A stretch of 64,000 nucleotides of DNA, taken from Bythopirellula sp. (lineage in GTDB: Bacteria; Planctomycetota; Planctomycetia; Pirellulales; Lacipirellulaceae). A program made the translations under genes and the position numbers. Position 1 is the first letter of the stretch. Each line of letters starts with the position of its first letter. This document shows, piece after piece, positions 8,530 to 14,425 of this stretch. The notes beneath the pieces were generated by a model. That model worked only from the letters and a program-made list of their open reading frames with translations, had not been told where the DNA came from and did not search any database. The stretch lies in assembly GCA_041737835.1 (NCBI GenBank), contig JBGSQY010000031.1. One strand, written 5' to 3'.

Positions 8530-8715
8530 ATGGCTCACCCACCTAGCATTTCTCATGACGAAGCCCTCGTGCAACAATTGCGGGCTGATCCAAAATTTGC
8601 AGAAGCCTACCGAGAGGAAGCTGCGGAAGAAGCCATGGGTGTCCGTGAGATTGCCCAAGGGCACTTGGCTGACGCTGCAAACGGTTCCACGGGCCCCACT
8701 GCATCATCATCCTAA
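8530..8715 (+). pseudogene. Truncated second antidote-like protein
   Basis: SHDEALVQQLRADPKFAEAY resembles antidote N-termini; HTH part is cut short where repC ends. Confidence 0.5.
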
Positions 8716-9992
8716 GCCGCCGCACGGCTCTCTTGCTGAGCCAGTATTCCAAACACCGAATTGTGCAGCCGCAATTCCGCAGTCCTTGCCCTGTTGATCA
8801 TCCCGCGAAAGTAAGCGGCGGGCTTCTCGACCACGTTTTCCGTCCGTTCGGTGGCCCTGTCGGTCACGAGCAAACACAACGCGGCTCCGGTGCGACCCAG
8901 AATTTCGCACGCTTCTCCCCAACTCGCTTGCGAAATCCCAAGCGGCGTTCGCAAACGGTAGGCTGCTTCAATCAAATCGGACCAAGTGGGTTCTGGCGGT
9001 AAGAGTTCTTGAAGCCGTTCACTGGCTGCCGCAATCGCCATCGCTAGTGAAATATGAGCTATCCCCGAGCTTGTGACGGGGTCAGTGGCCTCAGGACGAG
9101 CCGCTACGCTTCCCTGCAAGCCCTCGTCGGCCCGACTACTATCCTTATTTATTTTTAGAGTTGTGTATTTGTAGTGGGCGAACGGAGGTTCGCTTGTGCA
9201 TGTACCTTTATTGGTTTTTTCTGGAATAGAACGCGGTGGAGGGGCTTCAAGAGTTTCGACCTTCCCTACTCCCATTCCTTCCAATATCGCGTTATGGAGC
9301 GATTGATGACGGGCTAACAGCGTCCGCATGGTTTCAAGATCCAAATGCGTGCGAAGCTGAATAGCGATTTGATCGTATCGTTTTTCATATTCGTTTAACA
9401 AAACAAAAGCCCCCTCCTCCTGCTGCCATTCGAGCAGGAGCGAGCGAATTTGGCGGCGGTAGAACGATATCTCACGCTTGCATGCCAGCCACGCCTGATC
9501 GTGGAGTTGTTTTTCGTGCAGCATGTCCTGCAATTGCTCGCGGAGATACGCGAGCGGCGTCAGGTCGACGCCATAGGCGTAGAGAATTTTTCCCGATTGG
9601 GAATCACGCTGTCCGTAGCGTTTGTGATTTCCAGAATCGCTCCATGTGATGGCTCCCAATTCAAACAAAGCCTTCTCAAGCTTTTGAACTTGCCGTTCGC
9701 AAACGCCTAAATCGAGTGCCGTGCGAGATAACGACTGGTAAACAATCGGTCGTGACCCCCGCTCCCAATCGATTTCTCTCGTAAACGCAAAATAATAATC
9801 CAAGAGTTGCATCATGCGGGGCGTAAAACCTGCCGCCTTCCCTACCCGTTTGACCAGCAATAGTAACTCGTAGCGGTCGATCCCCTCCTCCAGTCCGGTA
9901 AAATCTTCGCTGCGAATAAGCGATTGCCGGTAAGCGGGCGAGCTCACGCGGCCCCCTCCTCGCTGATCATGATTGGTATAGGTCTCTAGCAT
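8712..9992 (-). CDS. repC: Plasmid replication initiator, RepC family
   Basis: PIVYQS...LEKALFELGAITWSDSGNHKRYGQRD...YAYGVDLTPL and C-terminal VEKPAAYFRGMINRARTAELRL; likely start ATG 9992 (426 aa). Confidence 0.85.
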   Translation of the reverse strand: MLETYTNHDQRGGGRVSSPAYRQSLIRSEDFTGLEEGIDRYELLLLVKRVGKAAGFTPRMMQLLDYYFAFTREIDWERGSRPIVYQSLSRTALDLGVCERQVQKLEKALFELGAITWSDSGNHKRYGQRDSQSGKILYAYGVDLTPLAYLREQLQDMLHEKQLHDQAWLACKREISFYRRQIRSLLLEWQQEEGAFVLLNEYEKRYDQIAIQLRTHLDLETMRTLLARHQSLHNAILEGMGVGKVETLEAPPPRSIPEKTNKGTCTSEPPFAHYKYTTLKINKDSSRADEGLQGSVAARPEATDPVTSSGIAHISLAMAIAAASERLQELLPPEPTWSDLIEAAYRLRTPLGISQASWGEACEILGRTGAALCLLVTDRATERTENVVEKPAAYFRGMINRARTAELRLHNSVFGILAQQESRAAA

Positions 9993-10104
9993 GGTTTCTC
10001 TAGCGTTACCGCGAGCTAACAAGCAGCATTCAAGGGTGTGCAAAAACTCCTTGCCGAACCAGAATTTGGTTTGCAACATGAGAATACTTGCGCTAGAGTG
10101 AGAG

Positions 10105-10170
10105 TGTTGATTACCTCAGCTCCAACGCTATTTGCCAAGTCACCGCCGCGCCAACGGCGGTTTCTTTTTA
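10105..10170 (+). ncRNA. Candidate counter-transcribed antisense RNA (ctRNA) upstream of repC
   Basis: TTGCAA (10071-76), 17 nt, TAGAGT (10094-99); hairpin ACCGCCG/CGGCGGT (10142-10161) plus T-tract; antisense to repC leader. Confidence 0.5.
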
Positions 10171-10310
10171 TCTAAAACGTGCCGGTCAAGCTTACGGGTC
10201 GGACGCCCTCCTTGGTTGGTTAAGTTGGCAAGTGGAGATGCCAGAACGGCCCTCCGATAGATAAGAATGGCCACGATTCGGCCTTCTCATGAAGTGACTG
10301 TACATGATTC

Positions 10311-10566
10311 CTGCACAGATTTCGATCAAAAACTGTGCGTCCATCCCTGACCAGCATTGACCAATGAACAATGGGGTGTGCAGCACCCGAAGCTGCACAG
10401 TTTTTCTGAAGCTGTTAAGGGCGGCGTATTCCAAGTGTGCAGTGGTGCCTACCGCACTTGTTCATTGTTGACCAGTGGTCAGTGACCTGGACAGCACACG
10501 CTGCACAATTGGGTGAGCAGGGGTGTTCATTCTGTCCTGCACACGGCTGCACAGTTCCCTGTGCAT
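10311..10566. repeat. Cluster of CTGCACA heptamers in both orientations
   Basis: Exact copies at 10311, 10377(rc), 10393, 10436(rc), 10501, 10537, 10547; near copy at 10560. Confidence 0.8.
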
Positions 10567-10620
10567 AGCTGCAAATGGCACTGCGTTAAACGCTTGCGCG
10601 GCCAATTAAAGTAGTGATAG

Positions 10621-13214: not shown

Positions 13215-14220
13215 CCAAATGCTCCTGAGCGACGTGGGTGTATCGCTCCGTCGTTTGGGTCGATGTGTGGCCAAGTAGCTGGCTTGTCATCTTGAGATTG
13301 CCAGTCTTGAGAATGGCGTTGGTCGCCGCCCTATGCCGCAAAGTGTAGGGAATAACTTTGGAATCAAATCCGGCACGCTTCCGAATATTCTGGACACGTT
13401 GGTCAATGGCATTGACGGTCCACGGTTCACCCCGCGAATTGATGAAGCAGTGAGTACTTGTGGAATGTTTTTTCAGCCACTTCAACAACCGCATCATCTT
13501 CGGAACCAAAGGTATGACTTTGGGTCGACCCGTCGAGCGGCGGGTTTTGTGTTGAGCGAGCAGGGCAATGTTTTGCTCCCAATGAATGTCACTCCACTGC
13601 AAGCGGATCAACTCGCCAGGTCTGCAAAACGTCCAGTCCATGGCGAGCAACACGCGGCGAAACTCCGCTCCGCGACGGTGGTTGTTCTTGGGATTGGTGG
13701 CCCGCAGCATGGCTTGAAATTCTTTGTCCGTGAGATACCGATCACGGCGGACACTCGTGGGTTTACGAATTCGGCCAAGCGAGTGGGGCGGAATGATTTG
13801 CTCTTCAACGCCCCAATTGAAGCAGCGTTGTACAGAACGCAAAACAATCCCCTGCGTCGTGGAATTGAGCCGTTTTTCCAGGGCAATTGTGAAGTGCCGA
13901 ACATGGAGCGGCTTGATGGTATGAGCGGGCAAAGCCCCATACTCATCAACAAACATTTGGCAGCCGTAACGATACGAGTCGTACGTTTTGGGAGCCAAGT
14001 TCCGCTGCACGTCCTCCAAGAATTCTTCGCAGAGTGCGGCGACGGTCAGCGGACCATCGACCGTCCCCAAGAGCTTTCGCTCGGCGAGAAGGGCGTCCAA
14101 TTTCTCTTGGGCAAGCTGCTTGTTCTTACGTCCCTTGGCGAGACAGAGACGTTTGCCGTCGATCTGCGTGGCCCAATACTTTTTGGCGGACCACCACCAC
14201 AAACTCGGTTGCGTAGCCAT
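13186..14220 (-). CDS. Tyrosine recombinase/integrase
   Basis: RPGELIRL, HKT, YTLRH, LLGH, TTERY catalytic set; RBS GAGG before ATG 14220. Confidence 0.95.
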   Translation of the reverse strand: MATQPSLWWWSAKKYWATQIDGKRLCLAKGRKNKQLAQEKLDALLAERKLLGTVDGPLTVAALCEEFLEDVQRNLAPKTYDSYRYGCQMFVDEYGALPAHTIKPLHVRHFTIALEKRLNSTTQGIVLRSVQRCFNWGVEEQIIPPHSLGRIRKPTSVRRDRYLTDKEFQAMLRATNPKNNHRRGAEFRRVLLAMDWTFCRPGELIRLQWSDIHWEQNIALLAQHKTRRSTGRPKVIPLVPKMMRLLKWLKKHSTSTHCFINSRGEPWTVNAIDQRVQNIRKRAGFDSKVIPYTLRHRAATNAILKTGNLKMTSQLLGHTSTQTTERYTHVAQEHLVTFACQAVG

Positions 14221-14254
14221 CGAAATCCTCACGAAAAAAGCTGGTCTCAGTCAC

Positions 14255-14279
14255 GAGGCGTGTACCTGAGGCGTGTACC
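14255..14279. repeat. 12-bp direct repeat pair, candidate integrase arm-type sites
   Basis: GAGGCGTGTACC at 14255-14266 and 14268-14279. Confidence 0.6.
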
Positions 14280-14311
14280 AGGAGTCTTTTCGTAAGGCTT
14301 CTGTTTGTGTG

Positions 14312-14341
14312 CCCTTGCCGTAACTTCAATTGCGGCAAGGG
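14312..14341. repeat. Perfect 9-bp inverted repeat next to tRNA 3' end
   Basis: CCCTTGCCG-N12-CGGCAAGGG. Confidence 0.7.
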
Positions 14342-14352
14342 TATTATATCAG

Positions 14353-14425
14353 TGCTCCCTGTTGGAATCGAACCAACAACCTACTGATTAAGAGTCAGTT
14401 GCTCTGCCAATTGAGCTAAGGGAGC
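14353..14425 (-). tRNA. tRNA-Lys(CTT)
   Basis: Cloverleaf; anticodon stem ACTGA/TCAGT, loop CTCTTAA; GTTCGATTC T-arm; CCA not encoded. Confidence 0.97.

Follow-up and report, generated by a model that had tools for sequence, protein, structure and literature searches.

The replicons closest to the locus described here are built around initiators of the RepC family. In the repABC plasmid p42d of Rhizobium etli, repC alone suffices for replication; its product acts in cis, and the gene contains the origin as well as an essential A+T-rich region (positions 450-850; PMC3155836). Replicons consisting of repC and a counter-transcribed RNA (ctRNA) without repAB are a recognised type in rhizobia, the pRmeGR4a/pSmeLPU88b type (PMC10194956). 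Integrative elements that replicate after excision are also known and include integrative and conjugative elements of actinomycetes (AICEs) such as pSAM2 (PMC2440964), SGI1 (PMC7826253), ICEBs1 (PMC3542172) and Rep-bearing integrative mobilisable elements (IMEs; PMC5704250). Planctomycete plasmids mostly carry RPA-family (PF10134) initiators together with ParAB, and the term "RepC" is absent from the main text of the survey that describes them (bioRxiv 10.1101/2024.01.22.576637). The subject of this report is a repC gene in a 64-kb stretch of DNA from Bythopirellula sp. (the window; all coordinates are window positions), in which it lies without repA or repB inside an element integrated at a tRNA-Lys gene, and the clade of RepC proteins to which it belongs. 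The reading favoured here, with a probability of about 0.6, is that the clade gene is the core of a repC-family replicon maintaining the excised form of an integrative mobilisable element, of which the window holds a decaying copy.

The locus resembles the rhizobial solitary repC replicons in its lone RepC, with RP-C and RP-C_C domains, and in an antisense gene on the opposite strand upstream (PMC10194956). It differs from them in a RepC that is 23-31% identical to plasmid RepCs, in an antisense gene unmatched by the Rfam model of the p42d ctRNA (RF00489), in the addition by the clade of c1, a protein with a helix-turn-helix (HTH) and a coiled coil, and of iteron-like repeats, and in its place in chromosomally integrated elements of non-proteobacterial phyla. 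With the repABC system of p42d it shares the RepC family, the upstream distance of a ctRNA-like gene, here predicted, and a central A+T-rich stretch of repC that serves p42d as oriV, whereas the clade has no repA/repB operon, occurs in hosts outside the Alphaproteobacteria and carries upstream repeat arrays in place of the iteron-free arrangement of p42d (PMC3155836). Like pSAM2, SGI1, ICEBs1 and the IMEs, the element combines a tRNA-linked or site-specific integrase, an excisionase and transfer genes with a plasmid-type replication function; those elements use RepSA, Rep_3, relaxase-driven rolling-circle replication or IncQ-type RepA/RepC. Integrative elements with plasmid-type replication functions are already known, using other initiators. 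With the planctomycete plasmids the clade shares the phylum and iteron-bearing putative origins beside the initiator gene. Full-text literature searches found no ICE (integrative and conjugative element) and no IME with an RP-C-family RepC and a ctRNA, and full-text literature on RepC with planctomycetes or with ICEs held nothing describing such a module. The module thus appears to be a variant of the repC type, new in its RepC divergence, its antisense RNA, its c1 and repeats, and its residence in chromosomal elements of other phyla.

The coordinates of all features are collected in Table 1. The repC open reading frame (ORF) is open to 10079 (8712-10079, minus strand), and its true start is probably Met30 at 9992, a residue that never varies across 18 aligned relatives and from which the gene of a relative of 91% identity starts. 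The protein passes the profiles of the RepC family: RP-C (PF03428; 1.6e-31, 109.9 bits against a cut-off of 24.4, profile positions 13-171 of 175), RP-C_C (PF11800; 1.5e-17, 64.1 bits against 32.6) and, over nearly its full length, the NCBIfam RepABC_RepC equivalog NF040974 (180.9 bits against 150, profile positions 32-392 of 393). It is a RepC family member by every sequence test, and a role as initiator is predicted. No homologue of ParA/RepA or ParB/RepB is encoded in the 64-kb window, and upstream of repC lie an antisense gene, repeats and a truncated gene for a type IV coupling protein (T4CP). Lacking both repA and repB, the locus does not count as a repABC replicon, and its architecture fits that of a solitary repC-family replicon. 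This copy is chromosomal and is not borne by an autonomous plasmid. Its intact ORF, antisense gene and internal A+T-rich region are the cis features that would be expected of a working repC-type replicon.

The antisense gene lies opposite the repC leader and is predicted to encode an RNA of ~65 nt with a geometry like that of the ctRNA of repABC plasmids. Its 5' end is predicted to fall ~114 nt upstream of where repC starts, and the corresponding distance in a Phaeobacter repABC plasmid is ~115 nt. An antisense hairpin followed by a T-run occurs in 78 of 84 family loci, ~170 nt upstream of Met30, compared with 2.4% of control windows and 5/84 loci on the sense strand. In the alignment, a conserved promoter (TTGCAt, 17 nt, TAnnnT) stands ~40 nt ahead of the hairpin. 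Compensatory changes were found at seven of the eight stem pairs; 97% of cells were paired, against 87% in shuffles, a percentage inflated by the choice of the aligned sequences through a hairpin scan, which does not inflate covariation at homologous columns. None of 500 shuffles equalled the values found, and slid controls collapsed. A covariance model built from 55 loci (R1) recovered the element in 29 held-out loci (E = 1e-19 to 3e-5), in every case antisense and directly upstream of repC, and gave no match in four canonical RepC plasmid loci. In the window, whose sequence is part of the training set, R1 has one match below E = 0.4, at the antisense gene (E = 3e-12). The folding z-score of the window RNA against shuffles is -2.9.

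The second family-wide feature is a trough of G+C inside the gene. Averaged over 84 family genes, G+C at nt 781-870 from Met30 is lower by 13.5 points, and the minimum falls at nearly the same place from gene to gene (10th-90th percentiles 765-855). A trough of the repABC type, at nt ~750-900 from Met30, is thus present in these genes and in the window, where repC has a further dip at ~9330-9420. By analogy, its position matches that of the essential A+T-rich region and oriV of p42d, which makes the trough a candidate origin.

Upstream of repC, relatives carry c1, the near-universal neighbour (70 of 80 loci by ORF clustering). This is a divergent gene of ~180-215 aa located ~600 bp from repC, whose product has an HTH_17-like N-terminus followed by a coiled coil and weakly resembles the NCBIfam "plasmid replication DNA-binding protein" (52.6 bits, below the cut-off). 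Less constant neighbours in the clade are genes for ArdC, Toprim/DUF3991, DUF6876, T4CP, MobA/L or VirD2-type relaxases and ParA/ParB-like proteins; in the nearest relatives the order is NikA, relaxase, one variable gene, c1, RepC. The neighbours of the window repC are mostly not conserved around repC in the relatives (tblastn). The iteron-like array upstream of the window gene holds seven of the window's 11 copies of TGTGCAG/CTGCACA, with ~0.03 expected per 243 bp; no other 7-mer in the 64 kb is clustered as extremely. Related loci have their own repeated 7-mers, of CTGNNCA or TGTAACA type, at the equivalent place, and in 26 of 67 loci the c1-repC spacer ranks in the top 5% of its own locus for 7-mer clustering.

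A protein search with the window RepC returned 467 homologues among the scored candidates. Named homologues at 54-64% identity lie in the planctomycete chromosomes of Adhaeretor, Aeoliella, Posidoniimonas, Polystyrenella, Botrimarina, Bremerella and Pseudobythopirellula. When each GTDB species was represented by one genome, a scan found 80 RepC loci at 43-62% identity. Of these, 32 bear the label Planctomycetota, some in complete genomes and some in species that carry several copies; four come from Verrucomicrobiota, among them the isolate Luteolibacter algae, which has two copies; two come from Bacteroidota; and ~40 are contigs of Micavibrio or other alphaproteobacterial metagenome-assembled genomes (MAGs). 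A tblastn search of the 72,556 plasmids in PLSDB found 547 records with RepC, at most ~31% identical to the window protein, and no clade member. In a neighbour-joining tree, read without the branches of L004 and L076 (wrong ORF picked, misplaced), the window joins four metagenome sequences and then planctomycete genomes, the verrucomicrobial sequences cluster, and the plasmid RepCs stand on long branches at 23-28% identity. The clade as read from these sequences is distinct from plasmid RepCs and structured by host phylum. The initial annotation had taken RepC as a marker of alphaproteobacterial plasmids, a premise that fails for a clade common in chromosomes of Planctomycetota and present in other phyla. 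Its alternative of a repC plasmid captured by an integrase module does not hold as a one-off event, given the clade's spread, the phylogeny and the PLSDB identities. Because the clade is widespread in Planctomycetota and other phyla and is at most ~31% identical to PLSDB RepCs, the window gene is by sequence neither a recent import from an alphaproteobacterial plasmid nor a singular capture.

One member of the clade is found on a circle. A contig of 11,124 bp binned as Micavibrio (L033) has an exact 77-bp terminal overlap, giving a circle of 11,047 bp, and carries c1, the antisense gene (the top R1 match, E = 1e-19), RepC, a MobA/L relaxase, an HpaII restriction-modification (R-M) pair and an IS110 transposase; no integrase or other replication gene was found on it. 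Two further contigs were set aside as circles, one (L081) without a terminal repeat and the other (L024) with an imperfect 318-bp overlap (228/318). The Micavibrio circle, with no other candidate replication gene, bears on a different view of the clade, according to which its RepC would be a DNA-binding regulator or a DNA-processing factor of the transfer system, and c1 with the repeats a transcriptional switch. The module does stand nearly always beside relaxase, T4CP, ArdC and Toprim genes, and the complete lack of clade members among sequenced plasmids would fit such a role. Against it, the curated equivalog model is passed over nearly its full length, and the predicted antisense-RNA control and internal A+T region typical of RepC replicons are kept. 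We regard this non-initiator role as very unlikely.

The element itself is bounded on its right by tRNA-Lys(CTT). The 3' end of this tRNA gene points toward the element and lies 120 bp from a tyrosine integrase gene, whose product also has Xer-like NCBIfam matches, all under cut-off. Two small HTH_17 genes follow; xis2 is convergent with the integrase gene and overlaps its 3' end. By their domain matches xis1 and xis2 qualify as excisionases (recombination directionality factors), an activity that is predicted. The possibility that one of them is a truncated c1 was discarded, the weak similarity being confined to the HTH. A lone RepC, an integrase, two excisionases and mobilisation remnants had been proposed for this interval as parts of a tRNA-linked integrative element, and the gene content bears this out. 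The interval 8712-14425 does hold these components, but as a boundary it is too narrow. The element reaches from 14351 leftward to window position 1 or beyond, because lower G+C and lower metagenome depth both run from 14351 to position 1; G+C is 0.49-0.55 from position 1 to ~14000 and 0.53-0.58 over the next 15 kb. The region 1-14351 is probably the tRNA-Lys-proximal part of an integrative mobilisable or conjugative element of a type common in Pirellulales. The planctomycete host named in the initial annotation is likewise supported, by flanking genes with PSCyt1/PSCyt2/PSD1, DUF1570 and FTR domains (Pfam) and by an arginyl-tRNA synthetase 78-81% identical to those of Bythopirellula spp. By these sequences the host is a planctomycete of the Pirellulales near Bythopirellula.

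The association between repC and a tRNA-linked integrase recurs in the phylum. Of 85 related loci, 11 have a gene for a tyrosine recombinase no more than 10 kb from repC, and in three planctomycete loci other than the window the integrase abuts a tRNA gene (tRNA-His, tRNA-Lys(CTT) and tRNA-Leu) 2-3.5 kb from repC. In a Bythopirellula MAG (L079, 10001-11265) a RepC gene beside an integrase and tRNA-Leu is split by a frameshift into two ORFs, a decayed copy at which R1 finds no antisense gene. The backbone of the window element is syntenic with an element of Adhaeretor mobilis, with identities of 49% for T4CP, 40% for ORF139, 30% for ORF147 and 51% for xis1; in A. mobilis the genes from T4CP to HTH_17 precede the integrase gene, with relaxase, NikA and DUF6876 genes upstream. 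A clade RepC is encoded ~36 kb from these genes on the A. mobilis chromosome, and with the synteny this makes RepC look like a regular part of the element family.

The window is present in three hot-spring metagenome runs, which provide independent contigs (Logan). A Logan contig of 4,031 bp with a chromosomal depth of 9.87 matches the window over 14327-14380 only, being less than 80% alike further left; the matching stretch is the candidate att core. Such a contig would be expected from a flank that is joined to the att core. Its interpretation as a diverged copy of the integrase region was rejected, on the same similarity of less than 80%. The tRNA 3' end and its flank do not recur in the window (at most three mismatches), and the loose-end sequences are all absent from it; JGI metagenome contigs contain no exact match to a 40-mer taken from the window start. 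An assembly artefact, in which the assembler had fused a plasmid or foreign element with a planctomycete chromosome through a conserved tRNA gene, would account for the differing depths of element and chromosome; the 3' half of tRNA-Lys is common to many organisms in the samples (depth 60-600), and 14144-14314, the integrase-tRNA junction, is uncovered by independent Logan contigs. The integrase, on the other hand, has the position and orientation at the tRNA 3' end of a canonical integration, and repC, integrase and tRNA occur together in the three further planctomycete loci. Moreover, the nearest relatives of RepC and T4CP are encoded on planctomycete chromosomes, in some cases in complete genomes, and an independent contig confirms the internal junction at 10621. 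Such a misjoin is very unlikely, and the least probable of the explanations considered.

Several small features mark the attachment region. The perfect repeat GAGGCGTGTACC occurs twice 23-47 nt upstream of the integrase start, between integrase and tRNA, and is possibly an arm-type site of the integrase or an operator. A 9-bp inverted repeat, CCCTTGCCG...CGGCAAGGG, lies at 14313-14345, adjoining the tRNA-Lys 3' end on its downstream side. This hairpin is split by the contig diverging at 14327, which has a diverged left arm in the same register; in that arm 10 nt are identical at 14297-14306, and in the following 20 nt half of the positions differ. On the other side of the tRNA, a contig (depth 10-13) in all three runs connects the tRNA-Lys 5' end (14425) with 14968 and lacks the 542 bp in between, among them the 3' part of the DUF1570 gene; its source may be a related organism or a structural variant on the chromosomal side.

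The transfer genes of the window copy have decayed. The nearest DNA relative, a metagenome sequence (L082), is 89% identical over 8681-10623, and the similarity stops 82 bp before its c1. At 10621, directly after three stop codons, T4CP homology begins; the fragment gives a gap-free alignment with the A. mobilis T4CP (482 aa) over residues 94-482 (49% identity) and matches positions 107-387 of 468 of the Pfam profile T4SS-DNA_transf. The missing first ~93 codons include the Walker A motif GAGKS (residues 41-45 of 482), and by sequence the product is not a functional coupling protein. Since the L082 identity ends at 10623 and the T4CP frame opens at 10621, one deletion has fused the upstream region of repC to the middle of T4CP, removing c1, the relaxase region and the first ~93 T4CP codons. 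A Logan contig spanning 9442-11033 with zero mismatches independently confirms the junction. A second event reduced ArdC to a stump, which aligns to approximately residues 250-325 of the 332-aa ArdC of related loci (tblastn). With the backbone proteins of related loci as queries, only the T4CP and ArdC remnants were found in the window, with no relaxase, NikA, Toprim, ParA/B or DUF6876; the nearest relatives keep NikA and relaxase beside c1-RepC. Because relaxase, NikA and coupling protein are missing or broken, the window copy is, as its sequence indicates, no longer able to transfer. In two related loci (L090, 7636-10004; L091, 852-6474), genes for VWA-domain and unannotated proteins lie upstream of soluble-type T4CPs of ~480 aa, with a MotA/ExbB gene upstream of T4CP in L090 only and no recognisable genes of a VirB-type type IV secretion system in either stretch. 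The mating apparatus of the planctomycete elements, if any, is not obvious.

In the model proposed here, the integrase would insert the element at tRNA-Lys, and one or both HTH_17 proteins would direct its excision. RepC would initiate theta replication from an origin within the A+T-rich middle of its own gene or adjacent to it, and the constitutively promoted antisense RNA would pair with the repC leader and limit RepC synthesis, providing control of copy number and incompatibility. In intact relatives, c1 would act on the iteron-like array between c1 and repC as an accessory factor or autoregulator. The repC module would keep the excised circle from loss until transfer, which would require relaxase, NikA and coupling protein, or until reintegration. 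The window copy would at best excise and replicate weakly or without proper regulation, and that this particular copy still replicates has a lower chance than the reading of the module as such.

Several observations weigh against this interpretation. The A+T trough coincides with a conserved F-x-H-Y-K-Y-T-T-Q peptide, and protein constraint could explain part of it. The ctRNA families of Rfam leave the antisense gene unmatched; RF00489 gives no match to it at E <= 5 in the window or E <= 10 in relatives, whereas in the Phaeobacter repABC plasmid, as positive control, it detects the ctRNA ~115-156 nt upstream of repC. No RNA-seq run with a member of the family was found, the Rhodopirellula baltica copy having been sought; the RNA of the module and its replication are predicted. 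The circularity of the Micavibrio contig rests on the 77-bp terminal overlap in a MAG contig. In the window, c1 was not found with the backbone proteins of related loci, and the module may be non-functional here. The distal att lies outside the window and, with the integrase-tRNA junction uncovered, excision is putative. Finally, the replication after excision envisaged in the initial annotation leaves no trace in contig depth: in the best run the element contigs have a depth of 5.5-7.2 and the chromosomal contigs of 8-10 (~0.7x), so that there is no excess over the element and no sign of extrachromosomal amplification.

The lost c1, relaxase and T4CP Walker A motif, the ArdC stump, the lack of an att repeat in the window and the lack of excess depth also fit an inert fossil, in which the element is fixed, repC and the antisense gene look intact only owing to the recent date of the deletion, and selection acts on the defence cargo alone (type I R-M, Cap4-like nuclease, HigBA). 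The dN/dS of repC, 0.18-0.19 against the relatives L082 and L081, indicates purifying selection, in a value that covers the whole divergence from L082 and cannot date a loss of function. Against a fossil, the ORF of repC, the integrase gene, the two HTH_17 genes and both the promoter and the terminator of the antisense gene are free of disabling mutations. The depth of the element below that of the chromosome, together with the contig of chromosomal depth that diverges at 14327, suggests a polymorphic site, and the element may be absent from part of the population. A fossil is considered unlikely, and the repC-family replicon that maintains an excised element, here in decay, is preferred.

Table 1. 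Features of the Bythopirellula sp. window, with position, strand and basis of assignment.
Feature	Position	Strand	Basis or remark
Cap4-nuclease-like gene, cut by window start	1-1039	-	Pfam
hsdS	1040-2260	-	Pfam
hsdM	2257-3837	-	Pfam
Type I R-M hsdR	3848-6319	-	Pfam
HTH_11 regulator	6238-6507	-	Pfam
ArdC stump	6879-7082	-	MPTase-PolyVal positions 77-126/126, without ArdcN domain
HigB-like (Gp49) toxin	7878-8198	+	Pfam Gp49 1.3e-06
Putative antitoxin, 119 aa, overlapping HigB-like gene	8168-8527	+	Inferred from position and translation
repC, predicted replication initiator	8712-9992	-	426 aa from Met30; RP-C and RP-C_C, NF040974, dN/dS
A+T-rich trough in repC, candidate origin/unwinding region	9122-9242	.	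G+C 0.44-0.46 against ~0.55 in flanks
Predicted counter-transcribed RNA gene antisense to repC leader	10062-10174	+	Terminator scan, covariance model R1
Antisense promoter	-35 TTGCAA 10071-10076; -10 TAGAGT 10094-10099	+	Predicted
Antisense RNA	~10105-10171	+	Predicted; terminator stem 10142-10161, then T-run
Iteron-like array	10311-10553	.	7 copies of TGTGCAG/CTGCACA in 243 bp
Deletion junction, repC upstream region to T4CP codon ~94	10621-10623	.	L082 comparison and start of T4CP homology
T4CP gene, 5'-truncated	10621-11802	+	TraG/VirD4 type; first start codon 10759
Backbone ORF139, 139 aa, no Pfam/NCBIfam family	11820-12239	+	A. mobilis homologue, syntenic
Backbone ORF147, 147 aa, no Pfam/NCBIfam family	12251-12694	+	A. 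mobilis homologue, syntenic
xis1, HTH_17/excisionase-domain, 81 aa	12697-12942	+	HTH_17 1.8e-10; TIGR01764 above cut-off
xis2, HTH_17/excisionase-domain, 91 aa	12939-13214	+	HTH_17 2.4e-08; TIGR01764 33.6 bits against cut-off of 28.8
Tyrosine integrase, 348 aa	13186-14232	-	Pfam Phage_integrase 4.3e-25, profile positions 2-172/172
Direct repeat GAGGCGTGTACC x2	14255-14279	.	12 nt perfect, one base apart, 13-nt period
Candidate att core: tRNA 3' 29 nt and 25 nt downstream	14327-14380	.	Inferred from metagenome contig
tRNA-Lys(CTT), integration target	14352-14425	-	ARAGORN; Rfam tRNA 75.5 bits; 3' end toward element

The left part of the element carries cargo. The defence genes at 1-6507, which include a complete type I R-M system, have the same G+C and metagenome depth as the rest of the element, and hsdM is 86% identical to an hsdM of Botrimarina hoheduenensis (L071) that lies 7.6 kb away from the RepC gene there. 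A 209-aa ORF without a Pfam family, rich in Cys pairs with several CxxC motifs, occupies 7194-7823, with the ArdC stump on one side and the gene of the HigB-like toxin on the other. Elsewhere in the window, at 39913-41235, the gene immediately after tRNA-Gly(CCC) is a 416-aa ORF of opposite orientation without a Pfam family; a second integrase-linked island at tRNA-Gly(CCC) 39913 was considered and rejected, the adjacent ORF being without a family and not an integrase. The region of low G+C at 55-62 kb contains ordinary genes.

The main interest of these findings lies in the family rather than in the window copy, which is a decaying example whose present value to its host is likely to be the defence cargo. 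RepC replication is regarded as a trait of alphaproteobacterial plasmids, and the clade, if it replicates as proposed, would widen the known host range; an RP-C-family initiator would join the replication systems by which ICEs and IMEs survive excision, and the antisense gene would define a new RNA family with clear covariation. A wider proposal, which we hold tentatively and at somewhat short of even odds, is that the cassette of c1, antisense RNA and RepC is an undescribed, self-contained replicon family, functional in Planctomycetota, Verrucomicrobiota, Bacteroidota and Alphaproteobacteria, and the standard maintenance module of cross-phylum mobilisable elements that integrate at tRNA genes. 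Its RNA would then be a new family analogous to the repABC ctRNA, possibly with an ancient homology, and its intact members would provide planctomycetes with their first native minimal replicon for replicative vectors. To our knowledge, planctomycete genetics has no replicative shuttle vector. The intact members in Adhaeretor, Aeoliella and Botrimarina and on the 11-kb circular contig are candidates for building one.

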